NCBI GenBank assembly: GCA_050949565.1
Contig: JBMNFY010000007.1
Location: 64,001 to 128,000, forward strand
DNA: 64,000 nt
Source: Kiritimatiellia bacterium
Lineage (GTDB): Bacteria; Verrucomicrobiota; Kiritimatiellia; RFP12; UBA1067
Direction of reading: 5' to 3'
Shown piece after piece: positions 13,880 through 51,981 of this stretch; the stretch's first letter is position 1; each line of letters opens with the position of its first letter. The notes under the pieces were generated by a model that worked only from the letters and a program-made list of their open reading frames with translations, searched no databases and was not told the origin of the DNA. Position numbers and translations under genes: made by a program.

Positions 13880-14170
13880 GGTTTTTTAACGCAGAGACGC
13901 GGAGACGCAGAGGTTTTTACGGGGTGGTGGCGTGACCGCCGTCGGGAGGGGCAAGCGTCTGCTTGCCCGCGGACGAGCAGACGCTCGTCCCTCCCCTCCT
14001 GCGGTCAAAGACAAAAAAGAAAAAATCTGCGCAATCTGTGCAAATCTGCGGATAAAACCAGAAAACCGCAAGACACGTTGTCGCAGGCGAGAACGCCCGC
14101 GTTACCTTCTCACGACCTCCTTTTCACCAGAAACATGACCTTCGCATACCCCTCTCACTAACCGATAACG
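13880..14170 (+). repeat. Mosaic intergenic repeat (AACGCAGAG array, 52-bp hairpin, AATCTGYGC array, GGGCGAGGACGCCC-type hairpin, TTTTCACCAGAAAC..CACTAACCGAT end)
   Basis: Module order shared with 31344-31740; last two modules shared with 45180-45290. Confidence 0.85.
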
Positions 14171-31343: not shown

Positions 31344-31875
31344 TGTTTTTTAACGCAGAGACGCAGAGGTTTTGATGGATGCGGCGTGACCGCCGCTGGG
31401 AGGGGCAAGCGTCTGCTTGCCCGCGGACGAGCAGACGCTCGTCCCTCCCGGTGCTCCGCAATGAACCCTGAAACCATCCTTCCGCACAGCGGAAGGCGGC
31501 TCGTGGGGACACTCGCCATCCATTGCCCGTCCCTGCGGCTCGTGGGGACACTCGCCATCCAAATCATGTCAATCATGTCAATCATGTCAAAAAAATGAAA
31601 CCATGGAACACGGGCAAGATGCCCGTGCCACACCCTTTTGCAAGACACGTTGTTGCGGGCGAGGACGCCCGACTCCAAATCTCTGCTCCCCTTTTCACCA
31701 GAAACGCACGATCTTCGCACATCCCTGTCATTAACCGACTGTGGATGGTCATGGAAAAACCTTTGTGTCCTTTGTGCCTTTGTGTGAGATTGAATTGGGT
31801 TGCGGGCTTTACCCGCGCTAGGTGAAAGGATCTAATAACGTTCAACGCTTAACGCTCAACTTTTAACGCTCAAGT
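31344..31875 (+). repeat. Long mosaic intergenic repeat
   Basis: AACGCAGAG array, 52-bp hairpin, GGCTCGTGGGGACACTCGCC x2, AATCATGTC x3, REP-like hairpins, CCTGTCATTAACCGA motif, CTTTGTG array, heptamer array. Confidence 0.9.
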
Positions 31876-36379: not shown

Positions 36380-36544
36380 CGGAAACTTCCTTCTTTTGGA
36401 GTAGCACAGGGGTGATAACGCTCAACGTTCAACTTCAGCTTTATCATGCTCTGGAATCGGGGAGGGACGAGCGTCTGCTCGTCCTCGGGCAAGCAGACGC
36501 TTGCCCCTCCCGTTTCGTACTTGATGTGTTGAGCGTTGAACATT

Positions 36545-41134: not shown

Positions 41135-41400
41135 CGGAAGGCGGCTCGCGAGGACGCTCGCCCTCCAGTCTATGATCAGGCTTGCGGAACGCCGAGAGTA
41201 AGCGTCTACTGCAAAATTTGGAGACAAGAACTGCGCTGTGCGCGGGTCGCGGCACCGCTTTTGCGTACCATCCTGCCGTCGCACTCCTACTCAAAAAGCG
41301 GCGTCGCACGGAATACCGCTTGCCGCCGCACTCCAAATTTTTTCGCCAGACTTGCGGGTTCCGAAGGAAACAAACGTTCAACGCTCAGCTTTCAACTTTG
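41135..41400. repeat. Mosaic repeat (GGAAGGCGGCTCGC..CGCCCTCCA hairpin, inverted TTGGAG..CTCCAAA element, heptamer array)
   Basis: Homologous to 26279-26504. Confidence 0.8.
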
Positions 41401-42178
41401 ACTGCAAAGCGCGGCCGACGTCCGGCACTGCCTCTAGCAGTGTGCGCGTGTAGGCGTGGCGGGGCACGTCGAGCACATCGGCGGCAATGCCGGTTTCGAC
41501 GAACACGCCGTCATGCATCACAGCCACGCGGTCGCAGATGTTGCGGACGACGGCGAGGTCGTGCGAGATGAGGATGATGGAGAGGCCGAGGCGCTGCTGC
41601 AAGGAACGTACGAGATTGAGGATGCGGGCTTGGACCGAGACGTCGAGCGCGCTGACCGGTTCGTCCGCGATGATCAGGCGCGGTTCGAGCGCCAGGCAAC
41701 GCGCGAAGCTGACACGCTGACACTGGCCGCCGCTGATTTCACGCGGGAAGGCGTCCAGCACTGTCGTGGGCAGTCCCACCAGGTCCAGCAGTTCGTCGAC
41801 GCGTTGCGGAATCGCCGCCGCCGGGCGCATGCGGTGGACGCGTAGCACTTCGTGCAGCGTCTGTCGAACCGTCATACGCGGATTGAGCGAGCCCGTGGCA
41901 TCTTGGAAGACCATCTGCACGGCGCGCCGGTAGTCGCGGAAGCCCTGACGCGAGAGCCGGTCGACCGCCCGGCCTTCAAACGTGAGTGTTCCGGCGCTGG
42001 CCGGTTGCAAGCCGATCAGCGCGCGGGCGAGCGACGATTTACCACAACCGCTTTCGCCGACGATGCCGAGTGACGCGCCAGCCGCGAGGCTGAATGAAAC
42101 GCCGCGCACGGCGCGGACCGGCGGCTGGCCGGGCGTGCGATAGGTGACGTGCAGGTCTTGGACGGTCAGGAGTGACAT
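41378..42178 (-). CDS. Oligopeptide ABC transporter ATP-binding subunit (OppF-like)
   Basis: GESGCGKS, QMVFQD, ISGGQCQR, ADEPVSALD. Confidence 0.9.
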   Translation of the reverse strand: MSLLTVQDLHVTYRTPGQPPVRAVRGVSFSLAAGASLGIVGESGCGKSSLARALIGLQPASAGTLTFEGRAVDRLSRQGFRDYRRAVQMVFQDATGSLNPRMTVRQTLHEVLRVHRMRPAAAIPQRVDELLDLVGLPTTVLDAFPREISGGQCQRVSFARCLALEPRLIIADEPVSALDVSVQARILNLVRSLQQRLGLSIILISHDLAVVRNICDRVAVMHDGVFVETGIAADVLDVPRHAYTRTLLEAVPDVGRALQSKLKAER

Positions 42179-43137
42179 GGCTGTGTATGCCAGCAGCGCG
42201 AACGGTGGCTGTCGGCGTCGTCGGTTTCAGGGGGTTGTTCGGCGTGGCAACGCGCGTCGGCCTGTGCGCAGCGCGGCGCAAAGGCACAACCGGCGGGCCA
42301 GGCGTCCGGCGAGGGCACGGTGCCGGGAATATCCTGCAGCGGAGCGTTGCGCGGTGCGTCAAGCATCGGCACCGCGGCGAGCAGGCCGCGCGTGTAGGGG
42401 TGGCGCGGGTTCGACAGCACGTCGGTCACGGCACCGGACTCTACCACCTGCCCCGCATACATCACATACACGCGCGTCATGCGCCCGGCGACCAATCCGA
42501 GGTTGTGGGTGATCAGCAACACCGCCATGCCGTCGGCGTCAGCCAGTGTGTCAATCAGGTCGAGCACCTGCTGTTGGGTTGTGACGTCAAGAGCGGTGGT
42601 CGGTTCGTCTGCAACCAACAGCTTGGGACGCGCGGCTAACGCCATGGCGAGCATGACGCGCTGCTGCTGGCCGCCGCTGAGTTCGCACGGGAAAGCGCGG
42701 GCCGCGCGGGCGGGATCTGGGAGTCCAGTCCGCGTGAGCAGTTCAACGCAGGCGTCGCGGTGCGCGGCGCGCGGCAAGTCAGGCAGGCATTCCGCGATTT
42801 GATCTTGTACGCGCATCACCGGGTTGAGGCTTGCAGAGGGGTCTTGAAAGACATACGCGATACCGCGACCGCGTACGCGGGTCAGGGCGTCGGGACTGAG
42901 CGCCAGAGTGTCCGTGCCGTCAAACAGCACACGTCCCTGCAGGCGGGCGCGATCCGTGGGCGAGAGCCGCGTGAGCGACAGGGCGGTGAGACTTTTGCCG
43001 CAACCGCTTTCACCGACTACAGCGACGCGCTCGCCGGCCTGGACGGTCAGCGAGACATCACGCACAGGCGTGGTCAGCATTCCGTCACGTCGGAACGTGA
43101 CGGAGAGGTGATCAACTTGGAGTAGGGGATGGGGCAT
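42166..43137 (-). CDS. Oligopeptide ABC transporter ATP-binding subunit (OppD-like)
   Basis: GESGCGKS, LSGGQQQR, ADEPTTALD, HPYTRGL, C-terminal Cys motif. Confidence 0.92.
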   Translation of the reverse strand: MPHPLLQVDHLSVTFRRDGMLTTPVRDVSLTVQAGERVAVVGESGCGKSLTALSLTRLSPTDRARLQGRVLFDGTDTLALSPDALTRVRGRGIAYVFQDPSASLNPVMRVQDQIAECLPDLPRAAHRDACVELLTRTGLPDPARAARAFPCELSGGQQQRVMLAMALAARPKLLVADEPTTALDVTTQQQVLDLIDTLADADGMAVLLITHNLGLVAGRMTRVYVMYAGQVVESGAVTDVLSNPRHPYTRGLLAAVPMLDAPRNAPLQDIPGTVPSPDAWPAGCAFAPRCAQADARCHAEQPPETDDADSHRSRCWHTQPCHS

Positions 43138-43164
43138 GATTAGGCAACTCTCAACTTTCAACTC

Positions 43165-43548: not shown

Positions 43549-43938
43549 GATTTACCTGCCTTTCGCCGACGCGGTATACTCCCAGATTTCGAACATGGCG
43601 ACATGGTATCTTTTGCGTTACATAAATCAACAACTTTTTTATTCCGCGTGGTAATCGGTTGGTGACAGGGGGGTGATGCTTGGTTTTTTTATCACACGAA
43701 GGCACAAAGGGCACGAAGGTTTTTTGGGGGCATGGCCCGGGTTTGTTTAACCACGGAATACACTGAACACACGGAAAGGCACAGCTCTGCTGTTTCACGC
43801 GAAGACGCGAAGATTGGAGGGCGAGTGGTCCCCACGAGCCGCCTTCCACTGTGCGGAAGGATGGTTTCAGGGTTTATTGCGGAGCGCCGGGAGGGGCAAG
43901 CGTCTGCTTGCCCGCGGACGAGCAGACGCTCGTCCCTC

Positions 43939-44634
43939 GTGCGCCCAGCATGGGCATGTACTAGTCAACTGAAAGGAGTTGATCGCAAAAGCAGTGACAG
44001 CAAGCGTAGCGAAACGGCAAGGCCGCGACCGCAAGGGAGTGAGCTGAAGGAAGCCGATAGCAAAGACACGGCCGCAGGAACACGAACGGGCAGTGAGGCA
44101 TGGTCCGGGCGATGAGTGTGCGAGGAAACACGAAATCCGACAGTCACCGAAAGACGCACTGTGTAGAGCCCGGCGGCACGGGTCGAAAGTACATGCACCT
44201 TACCTGGGGAGGCCCCGTGCGTGAGAGCGGACGGGGAGTCAGCAGAGGCCGTAGTAGTGAAGAGGCCCGCCGAAAGGCGGGAGGAGCGAAGGGCCGAAGG
44301 ACAACGAAAGTGCGGTCAGCCGACCGCCTTGGAAGCATGGCGAGGAGGGATGTGAAACAAAGGGGCGCGACAACTACGGTAGCCACCTCTGCGGCGCGGC
44401 GGGTCGGAGCCGGTGGATTCCGGTTCTGTCCAGTCGCACGCGGCCTGAGTCAGGCTTTCAGCGGCATGGAGGTGATGGATGATGCACAATGAAGCGAACA
44501 TGGCGTTGCCACGCCGTGGGACTTCGCGGGGGCGCGTCAGCGACCCCCGCCGTGTCCAACCGCCGTATGCGGAAAACCGCACGTACGGTGGTGTGGGAGG
44601 GGCACGGGGCGCAATCCCCGTGCCCCCACCCGAT
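43939..44634 (+). ncRNA. ORF-less group IIC intron (696 nt)
   Basis: 5' GTGCGCCCAGCATGGGC; domain V AACCGCCGTATGCGGAAAACCGCACGTACGGTGGTG with CGC triad; domain VI ending CCCGAT; lies directly after a hairpin. Confidence 0.9.
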
Positions 44635-45289
44635 CCTGGCGGCGGTCACGCCGCCACCCCGTAAAAAAATCTCTGCGCCTCTGTGTCTGCGTTAAAAAAC
44701 TTTCAACGCTCAACTCTCATTTCGGCACTCACAAGTCAGGCGAAAGATTTGGAGTGCGGCGGCAAGCGGTATTCCGCGCGACGCCGCTTTTTGAGCAGTG
44801 TTTTTCCGCGCGTGGCGCGGAGGGAAAGCGGTGCCGCGACCCGCGCACAGCGCGGCTCTTGTCACCGCACTCCAAATTTTCCGCCGCGCCATGCGCGGCA
44901 CAACCTTTTGCGCCCGCGCAGCGGAAAATCATGTCAATCCTGTCAATCGTGTCAAAAAAAACATCCTGCTTTTCACCAGAAACGCATAATCCTCGCGCCC
45001 CCCTGTCACTAACCGCGCGATTACCGCGCACTGTAATCGGTTGGTGACAGGGGGGGGCATGCGAGTCGAGCGCGTGTTTTGTGCGCATGCAAAGGTGGCG
45101 TGGGCGTCCCGCCCGCTCTGTGAAAGGCCACTCGTGATTCCGGCGCGCGGTTTGGTTTCGAAATGAAATACGCGCATCACCCTTTTGCAAGGCACGTTGT
45201 CGCGGGCGAGGACGCCCACGCTACCTTCTCACGGCCCCCCTTTTCACCAGAAACGCACGATCTTCGCACCCCCCTGTCACTAACCGATT

Positions 45290-46699
45290 CGCGGTCCGTC
45301 AAATAGAAAAGACACCGTAGGTTTTTTTGAGGCGGTGACGATCCGTCAAATACTGGACACCGAGGGGGTCAAGGGACGAGGGGCTGGTCAACGGCGTGAA
45401 GGGCGCGGAACCCGGGGTGGTCATCCCTTGCGCTTCGCGTTTGGCGAGCTTGTTCTGCTTGCGCAGGATCAGCGCGTATCGGCGGCGGATGTCCTCAAGG
45501 AGGCGGATCGGATTGGTCTTTTCGCGGAGCGCGGTAAGACGCCGGATCACGGCGGGGTCCGCGTATCCCGACGCAATCACCCTGTCGAGGGGCGTGGCGG
45601 GCTTGTCGTAACGCTTGGAGAAGCCGTGCGAGTCCGGCCTTTTGGTTTTGGAGATGAGCCGCTTGCAGGGGCGGAAGAGGTTGTTGTACAGCGATATCTT
45701 CGCGCACAGGACGTCCATGTCCTTCTTGAGCTCGAGGCGGTCGATGCGCTCGTAGCCGAAATACTCGCGGACGACGGAGGCGTTCTTCTGCTCCACGCGG
45801 GCGTTGTCGTTCTTGTTCCCGGGGCGGGAACGGGTGAAGGCGAGGGGGCGGGGGCGGTCCCGCGCGTAGCCGAGCACGTGGGCGTTGAGGAACTCCAGCC
45901 CGCTGTCCGAGTGCATGGCCGTGAGCGGGAACGGGAACGCGGCCTCGGCGTCGGCGAGGCCTTCCTTGGTCGCGGCCGCGCCGCGGTTCCAGACGCAGCG
46001 CAGCTCCGTCCACTGCGTCAGGCGGTCCGTGAGCGTGAGGATCCAGAAGAAGTTGCCGCTCATGTCGCCCCCGCAGAGCGCGACCGTGTCGACCTGCGTG
46101 TCGCCGGGGGCGGCGGGCGGCAGCGCCTCGCCCGGGACGCAGGGGACGCTCGACGCCAGCGCGTTCGCCCCGCTGCGGCGGTTGCGGCGGCGCGGGGCCT
46201 CGCGCGGGTGCTTGCGGAGGATGCGCTCCATCGTCGACGCGCTCATGCGCAGAACCTGCGCCGCGGCCGCCTCGTCGACATGCTCGAGCTCGCGCAGCGC
46301 GGCCATCTGGCGGTCCGCCACGGTCACAAGGTACCGGGGCGTCATGCGTCCCGAGGCGCGCCAGAGACGCAGGAACAGGGCTTCCGCCCCGGGCGTGTAC
46401 GTCTTCCCGCGCCCGGCGTGATCGCGGTACTTCCGGTTGCCGGTCAGCAGCCGGATGGCGTATTTGCGCTCGGCCCCCGTGACCTGGCAGAAGTCGTCGA
46501 TCGCGGCACTCTTGGCCTTCTTGCTCTTCAGTTTTGAATAGGCGCGACGCTTCGCGCCGACGTATCCCATCGTGGCTTTCCGTGACATCTCGTTTCTCAT
46601 GCGAGCCGATTCTAGCACGGTGTCCAGTATTTGACGGATGCGCTTGATTTCCGGACACCGCGATTTTGGCTACGGTGTCCATGACTATGACATACCGCG
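45290..46699 (-). mobile_element. IS element with rve-type transposase
   Basis: Imperfect terminal IR CGCGGT..GTCA; perfect 22-bp subterminal IR ATCCGTCAAATACTGGACACCG (45341-45362 / 46618-46639); flanking GATT direct repeat. Confidence 0.75.
45299..46600 (-). CDS. Integrase-core (rve) DDE transposase, ISNCY-like
   Basis: QVDTVALCG, HSDSGLEF, NDNARVEQKN; very high GC3. Confidence 0.88.
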   Translation of the reverse strand: MRNEMSRKATMGYVGAKRRAYSKLKSKKAKSAAIDDFCQVTGAERKYAIRLLTGNRKYRDHAGRGKTYTPGAEALFLRLWRASGRMTPRYLVTVADRQMAALRELEHVDEAAAAQVLRMSASTMERILRKHPREAPRRRNRRSGANALASSVPCVPGEALPPAAPGDTQVDTVALCGGDMSGNFFWILTLTDRLTQWTELRCVWNRGAAATKEGLADAEAAFPFPLTAMHSDSGLEFLNAHVLGYARDRPRPLAFTRSRPGNKNDNARVEQKNASVVREYFGYERIDRLELKKDMDVLCAKISLYNNLFRPCKRLISKTKRPDSHGFSKRYDKPATPLDRVIASGYADPAVIRRLTALREKTNPIRLLEDIRRRYALILRKQNKLAKREAQGMTTPGSAPFTPLTSPSSLDPLGVQYLTDRHRLKKTYGVFSI

Positions 46700-46722: not shown

Positions 46723-48171
46723 AAGGACTTTCCCCAAAAAATCGGGGGCAATTATATCTAAGTCCTTGAAAACAAAGGGGATGCGTCTCTGACGGGCGTG
46801 CCTGAAAGTGAAAAAGTGGTTTTCCTCCGCCGGTTCTGCCAAAATGGCGGTTCAACCAAAAACCAAAAACCGGAAAGGAAAACCGACATGAATCATAGCG
46901 CAACGGCGTTCAAAGCGCGAGAGCAACTCAAGAATTTTTTGGGGGAACTTTCCCCCCGGTTTTCCAAGCCGCTCGGCAAGTTCGTGGGCGACATGGTCTA
47001 CGGGATACAGGCGTCGCAGGACGTGAAGCTCAGCCGGATCGCCCGCGCGCTCGACGAGCCGATATCGATGAAGAAACTGGAGGACAGGCTGAGCCGGATG
47101 CTCGGGAGCGAGGGCATCGAGCAGGGGATTTCCGACGCTGTCGCCCGTCTGGGCTCGCGTCACGTCCATCAGGACACGCTGATCGTCATCGACCCGACCG
47201 ACATCCGTAAGCTGTACGCGAAGAAGATGGAATATCTCGCCCGCGTCCGGGACGGGAGCACGGGGGAGATCGGCAACGGATACAGCGCCTGCCTGGCGGT
47301 CGCCTGCGAGAGCGGCGGCCGCCGGATCACGCCGTTGCACATGCGGCTGTGGTCGAGCGAGGCGGAGGGCTTCATCAGCCAGAACGACGAGGTGCTCGGC
47401 GTCATCGACCAGATCAGCTCCCGCGCGAAGAAGCGCGGCATCTACGTCATCGACCGCGGAGGCGACGGAGACTGGCTGTTCGACGGCCTGGACCGGCGCA
47501 AACTGGACTACATCGTGCGCCTCGTGGGCAACCGCAACCTGCTCCACGGCCGGCGGACCGCGCTGGCCGAAGAACTGGCGGCATCCTGCCCCATGAAGCA
47601 CATCGAGATCGTCACGAGGGAGACGGGGGACGGGGTGAAAAGCTATAAGCTGGAGTTCGGCGCCATGACCGTCGCCCTGCCGCAGAGGCCCGACAAGCCC
47701 CTGCGCATGGTCGTGGTGAAGGGGTTCGGCGAGCGGCCGATGCTCCTGCTGACCACGCTGGCCGGGACGACGTCGCGCAAGTCCCTGTGGCAGGTCGTCG
47801 AGGGCTATCTGACGCGGTGGCGCGTCGAGGACGCGATCCGCTTCGTCAAGCAGAGCTACAACCTCGAGGACATCCGGGTCCTGACGTACCGGCGCCTGAA
47901 AAACATGGTCGCTCTGCTGCTGGCCGTCATCTACTTCAACTGCGTCTGGCTGGCCGGACGGCTGCGCTGCGAGATCCTGACGACCAACATCACCCACGCC
48001 GCCAAGCGCATCTACGGCGTGGCCGAGTTCCTCCACTACGCCGTCGCCGACGGCCTCGGGAGGCTCTTCACGCGCCACGGGAAATGGTACGGCTACAAGC
48101 CGCCAGACCCCGAATCAAACCCGCTCGGACTGGTCTTTCTGGAATGACCAGATTTTTTGGGGAAACTCCTT
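46723..48171 (+). mobile_element. IS4-like insertion sequence (1449 bp)
   Basis: 21-bp IRs AAGGA(C/G)TTTCCCCAAAAAATC with 1 mismatch; 9-bp TSD TTACGTTGC (46714-46722, 48172-48180). Confidence 0.92.
46888..48147 (+). CDS. DDE transposase, IS4-like
   Basis: IVIDPTD, VIDRGGD, Y..RWRVEDAIRFVK (YREK-type signature). Confidence 0.9.
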   Translation: MNHSATAFKAREQLKNFLGELSPRFSKPLGKFVGDMVYGIQASQDVKLSRIARALDEPISMKKLEDRLSRMLGSEGIEQGISDAVARLGSRHVHQDTLIVIDPTDIRKLYAKKMEYLARVRDGSTGEIGNGYSACLAVACESGGRRITPLHMRLWSSEAEGFISQNDEVLGVIDQISSRAKKRGIYVIDRGGDGDWLFDGLDRRKLDYIVRLVGNRNLLHGRRTALAEELAASCPMKHIEIVTRETGDGVKSYKLEFGAMTVALPQRPDKPLRMVVVKGFGERPMLLLTTLAGTTSRKSLWQVVEGYLTRWRVEDAIRFVKQSYNLEDIRVLTYRRLKNMVALLLAVIYFNCVWLAGRLRCEILTTNITHAAKRIYGVAEFLHYAVADGLGRLFTRHGKWYGYKPPDPESNPLGLVFLE

Positions 48172-51904: not shown

Positions 51905-51981
51905 GGGGGATTAGCTCAGTTGGTTAGAGCACTTGCTTGACATGCAAGGGGTCGGTGGTTCGAGTCCACTATCTCCCACCA
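51905..51981 (+). tRNA. tRNA-Val(GAC)
   Basis: Acceptor stem GGGGGAT/ATCTCCC, anticodon arm CTTGC-TTGACAT-GCAAG, GTTCGAG T-loop, encoded CCA. Confidence 0.97.

Follow-up and report, generated by a model that had tools for sequence, protein, structure and literature searches.

A group II intron without a reverse transcriptase (RT) gene lies at positions 43939-44634 on the + strand of the window, as we call the whole 64,000-nt stretch of Kiritimatiellia DNA analyzed here (positions 64,001 to 128,000 of contig JBMNFY010000007.1, assembly GCA_050949565.1). The intron is 696 nt long and is placed at CCCTC|CC within a 52-bp palindromic repeat. It belongs to an RT-less lineage in which the same deletion junction occurs at several sites, each behind a hairpin and CTC. 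We consider it very likely that the element is a non-autonomous group IIC intron with a deleted open reading frame (ORF), which was spread by a trans-acting RT to sites made of a hairpin plus CTC and is now likely stranded.

Intron identity and ribozyme anatomy

A search of the window with Rfam models at gathering thresholds gave three matches in total, two of which are within the intron. The domain I core (group-II-D1D4-3, RF02001) was found at 44025-44197 with 95.8 bits (E 3.4e-18, model positions 1-170 of 170), and domains V and VI (Intron_gpII, RF00029) at 44558-44634 with 46.3 bits, above the gathering score of 40. The sequence starts with GTGCG and ends with CCCGAT, and these termini (GUGCG..GAU) fit the group II pattern GUGYG...AY. 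No RT ORF is present in the window's intron, where the longest in-frame remnant is 61 aa. The first-pass annotation, made from the letters of the window, had described a 696-nt intron with an intact 5' end and intact domains V and VI in which the RT ORF is lacking, and had named these Rfam models as the check; both the description and the check hold. The stretch 43939-44634 is therefore confirmed as a genuine group II intron that has kept its whole ribozyme.

The same annotation had left the folding of domain I to be examined. The full domain I model is matched, and an alignment of 12 family sequences gives 96 consensus pairs in domains I-III, 40 of them with compensatory changes, so that domain I can be folded. 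Within the RT-less lineage itself (five sequences) there are few changes, and these include two compensated pairs. Domain IV is reduced to a remnant at about 44303-44556, with limits inferred from the structures and from the alignment to the parental introns, and its 5' part is kept up to the start codon of the former RT gene. By likeness to other group II introns, this 5' part is presumably the region bound by the intron-encoded protein (IEP). Domain V (44559-44592, intron pairs 621-654) has CGC at the position of the catalytic triad (44561-44563), a G·U wobble and a 2-nt AC bulge, and domain VI (44594-44632, intron pairs 656-694) has a bulged A at 44628, 7 nt before the 3' end. CGC at the triad position is typical of IIC introns. 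More generally, the triad of group II introns is described as "usually AGC or CGC" (PMC12350094).

Origin by deletion of the RT gene

As its alignment to relatives shows, the window's intron derives from an RT-encoding IIC intron of 1905 nt by one internal deletion in domain IV. The relatives were gathered with a 24-nt motif from the intron's 5' end, scanning one genome per species, which gave 57 loci; viral contigs gave no match to the motif. Among the 57 loci, many of those outside the Planctomycetes-Verrucomicrobia-Chlamydiae (PVC) group match over the first 24-37 nt alone and are unalignable beyond, and these short matches were left out of the covariation and lineage hairpin counts below. 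Two loci, L056 and L063, hold 1905-nt introns with an intact 424-aa ORF. The nearest RT-bearing relative is L056, which follows the same GACGAGC..GCTCGTC+CCTC hairpin as the window's intron, and in it the RT-encoding parent type that the first-pass annotation had suggested looking for is at hand. Nucleotides 1-565 of the window's intron align to nucleotides 1-562 of L056 with 86% identity, and nucleotides 562-696 align to 1771-1905 with 82% identity. In L063, the same two segments align to 1-561 (78%) and 1771-1905 (85%). The deletion junction falls at about intron nucleotides 562-565 (44500-44503), and the parental borders of the deletion share a short ACGGG/ATGGG similarity.

Remnants of the RT gene are found on both sides of the junction. 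A Shine-Dalgarno sequence, GGAGG at 44468-44472, and an ATG at 44482-44484 (translation MMHNEAN..) are homologous to the RT start in L056 and L063. The ribosome-binding site and start codon stub that had been noticed at first reading is thus genuine, with the ATG homologous to the parental one at 44482-44484. The N-terminal remnant MHNEANM (44482-44502) corresponds to MHNEENT and MRNEGNT in the parents, and the C-terminal remnant PWDFAGAR (44514-44537) corresponds to PWDFARAHV and PWDLAGART and is out of frame with the N-terminal one. Since both flanks of the gap align to the parent and both ends of the RT have left remnants, the missing portion of the ORF, about 1209 nt, was lost in one step.

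The class of the intron was assessed from the parental RT. The L063 protein matches the group II RT/maturase family TIGR04416 with 358.7 bits, and among solved structures its top match is the GsI-IIC RT (6ar1, 392.5 bits), with lower matches to 7uim (286.8 bits), 5hhl (236.4), 5hhj (233.5), LtrA (115.6) and 6me0 (104.9). We take 7uim, 5hhl and 5hhj to be RTs of IIC introns, and LtrA and 6me0 to stand for classes IIA and IIB. The RTs of both L063 and L056 score highest against the GsI-IIC RT. The parental RT thus seems closest to IIC-type RTs, which is consistent with class C for the intron.

Insertion into a 52-bp palindrome

The 5' exon of the intron comprises nt 1-50 of the 52-bp palindrome (GGGAGGG..CCCTC, 43889-43938, +). 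Read across the junction, the palindrome at 43889-43940 has two mismatches, and these are its final two bases, where the intron starts. The 3' exon begins with CC (44635-44636, +), which completes the arm CCCTCCC, and its first base, the putative intron-binding site 3 (IBS3), is C in the eight 3' junctions of the lineage that were seen. In 100 shuffles of the sequence the 52-bp palindrome gave no match.

Empty copies of the palindrome are present in the window at 13944-13995 (+, exact), 31398-31449 (+, exact, with its core inverted relative to the flanks when compared to the intron-bearing copy) and 36460-36511 (-, one mismatch). Excising 43939-44634 in silico joins ..GCTCGTCCCTC to CCTGGCGGCGGTCACGCC and rebuilds CCCTCCC. 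The restored ..CCCTC+CC is then followed by TGGCGGCGGTCACGCC, which is the flank beside empty copies, e.g., on contig C17 of the same genome at 374704. These results agree with the first-pass annotation, which had listed the three empty hairpin copies and had stated that removal of the intron restores both hairpin and flank. A paralogue of the whole surrounding repeat is present on the same contig (C17:374492-375160), with both flanks contiguous and the intron absent. The genome that holds the window's intron (G000; 4.66 Mb, 21 contigs, 92% complete) contains 71 copies of the palindrome at up to 6 mismatches, most of them exact. Both strands of the palindrome end with CCCTCCC, so G000 offers about 142 unused CCCTC|CC sites.

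Two folds of the palindrome are possible, a single long imperfect hairpin and a T-shape that carries two small hairpins inside. Its core is asymmetric, and compared to the GCGGAGC flank, 50 copies have the core in one orientation, 10 have it inverted and 11 could not be classified. The inverted core is found solely with the GGCGGTCACGCC flank (10/34), in a flip/flop-like pattern. Seven matches to the Y1 transposase family PF01797 were found in G000, five of them over the cut-off, at sites including C8:242562, C4:30024 and C17:1660627 (L111-L115 are among the loci). They are candidate partners of the hairpin repeats, of the type known as REP-associated tyrosine transposases (RAYT), where REP stands for repetitive extragenic palindromic sequence.

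Targeting by hairpin and CTC

Nine distinct 5' junctions are available for the lineage of the window's intron. In all nine, the exon ends with CTC and a stem of at least six consecutive pairs ends 2-5 nt upstream. In controls from G000, the stem criterion was satisfied at 149 of 1500 random positions, and at 186 of 1500 when the positions drawn had to follow CTC. We attach no probability to this comparison because the nine sites are partly related repeats. Over all junctions with at least 45 nt upstream, other lineages included, a strict hairpin criterion holds for 32 of 56. The location 3' of a stem-loop that the first-pass annotation had given as known for IIC introns is therefore seen throughout the lineage.

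The hairpins themselves differ. Two sites use the top strand of the 52-bp palindrome, one uses its bottom strand (L126), and one has only its inner half, GACGAGC-AGAC-GCTCGTC (L017/L047). Two further sites follow GGCGGCGGTCACGCCGCC, two follow GCGGGCGRGGACGCCCGC and one follows GCGGCGTGGAACGCCGC. The palindrome or its half thus hosts four of the nine sites, and the remaining five follow three other hairpin types. The first-pass annotation had seen a REP-type repeat family as the homing target and expected other copies to be associated with this hairpin. This holds for the four sites and fails for the five, and the target is better described as any small GC hairpin, followed by 3-7 nt that end with CTC, with C as the next base.

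Within the palindrome, the inner 7-bp hairpin GACGAGC-AGAC-GCTCGTC together with CCTC appears to be what is recognised, because L017/L047 has only that half. In the window, this hairpin is at 43917-43934 (+), 4 nt before the insertion point, and is the sole part of the palindrome found at L017/L047. The CCTC at 43935-43938 (+) is intron-binding site 1 (IBS1), with its CTC found at 9/9 lineage junctions. It complements a GAGG hairpin loop in domain I at 44122-44125, which covaries with the 5' exon in relatives and on these grounds is taken as exon-binding site 1 (EBS1). Among 13 related introns, the loop has GAG in seven of the nine with CTC exons and UAGG in all four with CTA exons. Two other candidates for EBS1 were rejected, namely GGGGAGG at about 44207, which stays the same regardless of the exon, and the UGAGAG loop at about 44220, which represents a conserved GAGA tetraloop.

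Copies of the RT-less form and their spread

The window's intron is single-copy in G000, where it matches only itself (100%), and full-length copies with 94-98% identity are found elsewhere. A sequence pattern spanning the deletion junction gave 11 metagenome loci. Two of these are the window's locus, two are loci of G033 (a genome of another genus in the same family, assembly 90% complete), and two are new full copies of 695 nt with 98% identity at two further sites (L124, L126). Four represent one 5'-truncated copy type and one shows the 3' part only. In G033, the two full copies are 95% and 94% identical and lie at different loci. Altogether, full RT-less copies of 695-696 nt with 94-100% identity occupy five distinct sites, the window's own included.

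Additional 5' junctions come from contig ends. In G004, a genome of the same genus as G000 (assembly 78% complete), there are five different junctions, and the 41-52 nt with which the intron starts at them are 100% identical. One of them, on contig C201, is the orthologue of the window's locus and another is the L124 site. L070 adds one junction beyond these five. The truncated copy type (L117, L119, L121 and L125, e.g., L125:10446-10807) comprises intron nucleotides 333-694 with 91% identity; it starts after a T-run, and the flank module of the palindrome still follows it. Matches in G006 and G076 were rejected as further copies, as they are only 3' fragments of about 120 nt.

One deletion junction at five distinct insertion sites implies that the RT-less form moved after the deletion, which would mean in trans, and the mobilisation in trans proposed in the first-pass annotation is to this extent supported by the shared junction. 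Alternatively, the deletion might have immobilised the intron at once, so that the copies seen today arose by DNA-level duplication or recombination of repeat modules. Indeed, the neighborhood is composed of a patchwork of repeats that have many paralogues, G004 C201 and the window's site descend from one locus, and G000 has a single copy despite 71 candidate palindromes. We nevertheless regard such a dead relic as improbable. Copies with the same junction stand after four hairpin sequences with unrelated outer flanks, always exactly at ..CTC|C, and L126 is inserted on the opposite strand of the palindrome. In addition, paralogous repeats lack precisely the intron.

Helper RT and present activity

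An RT from elsewhere would be needed as helper for an RT-less intron to spread in this way. The only PF00078 match in G000 is a 242-aa fragment with RT and X domains on contig C8 that belongs to another intron lineage. Cut on its 5' side by a gene of insertion sequence (IS)-like DDE type (a divergent ORF), the fragment shares about 31% identity with the L056 RT. This region (G000:C8:45141-46400, L002/L003) is a second group II intron, in which domains V and VI score 51.7 bits and the fragment covers RT and GIIM. With TIGR04416, no match reached the cut-off in G000 or G004. Neither PF00078 nor TIGR04416 revealed an intact group II RT in the assemblies of G000 (92% complete), G004 (78%) and G033 (90%), and in G033 the two models had no match of any score. 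G076 and G077 hold full RTs of other lineages.

One copy, no intact group II RT and 71 empty palindromes fit a copy that is probably stranded in its genome. The first-pass annotation had called the element a retroelement resembling a miniature inverted-repeat transposable element (MITE). For this genome that description does not hold, given the single copy despite 71 palindromes with CCCTC|CC on both strands and the lack of an intact group II RT among the matches.

Contigs from RNA libraries bear on whether the intron might still be active here. Metatranscriptome contigs from four runs in four studies cover parts of the intron region. The X16 contig (663 nt) covers 43900-44564, from the exon-intron junction through the deletion junction, the X18 contig covers 43828-44229, and a 178-nt piece from X19 has no differences from the window. 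The 1641-nt X15 contig matches 43899-44500 with 35 differences and departs exactly at the deletion junction; we read it as a closer RT-bearing relative. Like L056 behind the same hairpin, it speaks for the existence of helpers in nature. Joints in X19 that skip 699 or 700 nt were considered as ligated exons and rejected, since they have CCC or CCCA between the two sides and match empty paralogous palindromes. In the contigs of the four RNA libraries, in which carry-over of DNA is possible, no ligated exons distinguishable from empty paralogues were found.

An intron that is still spliced or mobilised here, by a non-cognate or unassembled RT (in the missing 8% of the genome, on a plasmid or from another RT family), would account for the RNA-library contigs from four studies over the intron, three of which (X15, X16, X18) cross the unspliced 5' junction, and would also fit the intact ribozyme and 5' part of domain IV. 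We find this as improbable as the dead relic. The intron has one copy against about 142 unused CCCTC|CC sites, and the sole group II RT found is IS-truncated at its 5' side and only about 31% identical to the cognate type. RNA libraries can also contain DNA, and they gave no ligated exons that could be separated from empty paralogues.

Proposed history of the intron

Taken together, our results suggest that the parent was a 1905-nt IIC intron, with a 424-aa RT/maturase that has no endonuclease domain, and that a single deletion within domain IV removed about 1209 nt from its ORF. The ribozyme stayed complete, and of domain IV there remained the 5' part, including the Shine-Dalgarno sequence and start codon, along with about seven N-terminal codons and about eight C-terminal codons. 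The resulting 696-nt RNA would keep the parental targeting, in which a stem-loop is followed 3-7 nt later by CTC that pairs with the GAGG of EBS1, with C (IBS3) as the next base. A related full-length intron may then have supplied the RT in trans, such that the 696-nt RNA could reverse-splice into several sites in Kiritimatiellia, one target being the inner hairpin of the 52-bp REP-like palindrome. The window's copy would be one such insertion, present also in a genome of the same genus. With the helper now apparently gone from G000, the intron would most likely be stranded, as a structurally intact ribozyme in repeat-rich intergenic DNA. The identity of the intron, the anatomy of its deletion, the one junction at multiple sites and the targeting by hairpin and CTC are shown by the data. 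Reverse splicing, dependence on a helper and present immobility are the parts of this history that we infer.

Some observations weigh against it. The mobility and splicing of the RT-less intron are inferred and not seen directly. Incomplete assemblies often omit multi-copy RT-bearing introns, so the lack of a helper is unproven. Four of the nine junctions stand at contig ends of the G004 type, where no more than the initial 28-52 nt of the intron can be seen, and these copies could be full-length. The sites are also partly dependent on one another, as several lie in related repeat modules and G004 C201 is orthologous to the window's site. For the EBS1/IBS1 covariation, 11 of 13 introns fit, while L060 and L050 break the rule, and EBS3 was not located in the window's intron. 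Finally, the G033 copies show a possible sign of decay, namely a U-C mismatch in their domain V.

Other RT-less forms in the clade

The window's lineage is not the only one without an RT: six of the 12 copies of the intron clade that are resolved end to end, the window's own included, lack it. A second RT-less form was found at L060:6174-6866 (-, 693 nt) and L071:4748-5435 (-, 688 nt), in metagenome-assembled genomes of Opitutia and Lentisphaerae. These are 93% and 90% identical to the RT-bearing L055 and L094 in domains I-III and V-VI, and their domain IV is unrelated to that of either RT-bearing parent. The 2001-nt copy of G077 (L042/L045) was considered as an RT-bearing parent and rejected, as its insert holds a DruA-like ORF on the opposite strand and no RT. 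In L042 (G077:C35:18800-21700), this intron is at 436-2436 on the minus strand, with a ribozyme of 83% identity and a 1.5-kb insert in domain IV, and the ORF encodes 263 aa similar to DruA/DUF4338 (PF14236, E 1.6e-26). A trace of a different kind is seen in L043 (G076:C89:2400-5400), where a 790-aa RHS/YD-repeat ORF (174-2546) ends with ..LKRYGFIIPWDFAEANV, the C-terminal motif of the intron RT. Here, a 5'-truncated intron fragment (2517-2637, RT tail plus domains V and VI) has replaced the sequence after the RHS core.

It is conceivable, even though we think it rather unlikely, that RT loss is common and recurrent in this IIC clade of Kiritimatiellia, Lentisphaerae and Opitutia (at least three RT-less forms among the 12 resolved copies), and that one lineage crossed genera and multiplied in genomes truly without a group II RT. 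If so, a transferred element would provide the helper for a time, or a non-cognate RT would act as helper, and a free-riding ribozyme "MITE" could persist without a resident master copy.

Comparison with known introns

IIC introns are reported to insert after DNA stem-loops (PMC4424553, PMC12584367), as seen for B.h.I1, O.i.I1 and GsI-IIC at terminators and for IIC-attC introns at attC. The window's intron shares with them a small ribozyme, CGC at the triad position, a short (3-4 bp) EBS1-IBS1 pairing and insertion a few nt 3' of a hairpin. Its lineage also appears to resemble them in that the IEP lacks an endonuclease domain, the parent-type RT being nearest to that of GsI-IIC (392.5 bits). 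Unlike these introns, the window's copy has no IEP, and the hairpins of the lineage are GC-rich palindromic repeats without a T-run instead of terminators or attC.

The closest precedent is the family of ORF-less TeI3 introns in Thermosynechococcus elongatus (Mohr, Ghanem and Lambowitz 2010, PMC2882425). Like the window's lineage, TeI3 introns have one ancestral domain IV deletion with identical breakpoints, N- and C-terminal ORF remnants and proliferation in trans (PMC2882425). However, TeI3 has eight ORF-containing relatives in the same genome and long EBS/IBS homing sites (PMC2882425), whereas the lineage described here is of class IIC, targets hairpins and is found in two genera, and its three carrier assemblies yielded no intact group II RT.

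Bacterial ORF-less introns are described as rare and nearly always beside related IEP-encoding introns, with C.te.I1 of Clostridium tetani as the one exception (PMC4424553). C.te.I1 is presented as the "sole known" bacterial ORF-less intron in an IEP-free genome, and it resembles the window's intron in that no cognate IEP gene was found (PMC4424553). A C. tetani intron splices alternatively within coding mRNAs (PMC4024640), whereas the window's intron is intergenic and its lineage is present at multiple sites. The window's intron might likewise be a self-sufficient ribozyme that splices without protein as C.te.I1 does, adopted by the host for a change in the hairpin or for an outward promoter as in IIC-attC introns. 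Precedents exist (PMC4424553, PMC3001079), and copies from the two genera have kept 94-100% identity, some of their changes being compensatory. Against this stand the repeat-rich intergenic place, divergent from the adjacent ABC-transporter genes, and the fact that no conserved downstream gene is common to different copies, and we judge this reading to be very improbable.

Mobile elements in palindromic repeats have been reported before, with REP sequences and bacterial interspersed mosaic elements (BIME) as targets; a group II intron of Pseudomonas putida KT2440 is REP-associated in two of nine copies (Tobes and Pareja 2006, PMC1525189). The likeness is a mobile element within a repeated extragenic palindrome (PMC1525189). 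Unlike those cases, the association here follows the IIC hairpin rule, with four of nine sites in the palindrome. In the available parts of the literature searched, no description of a proliferating ORF-less IIC lineage was found. Compared to the known ORF-less introns, the differences are class IIC, the hairpin targeting, the occurrence in two genera and a helper not found in the carrier assemblies.

Within the IIC class, which targets hairpins, the intron is a clean natural ORF-deletion derivative whose parent can be recognised and whose breakpoint is shared at no fewer than five sites. Its IIC ribozyme is compact (696 nt) and apparently intact and follows a simple, readable rule of hairpin plus CTC|C, and the intron is a natural case for how non-autonomous retroelements persist and spread between genomes. 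REP-like palindromes can become landing pads for IIC introns simply by presenting a stem-loop, and this role bears on how palindrome repeat families gather other mobile DNA.

Genomic surroundings

The intron lies within about 2 kb of repeat-rich intergenic DNA, with minus-strand ABC-transporter ATPase genes (41378-43161) on one side and a DDE transposase gene (46798-48147) on the other. Between 43100 and 45400 of the window, almost every intergenic part recurs in G000 and in genomes of the same genus with 75-100% identity, and a 110-nt module at 45290-45400 has several copies of 100% identity. A tRNA gene at 51905-51978 (RF00005, 68.7 bits) is unrelated to the intron.

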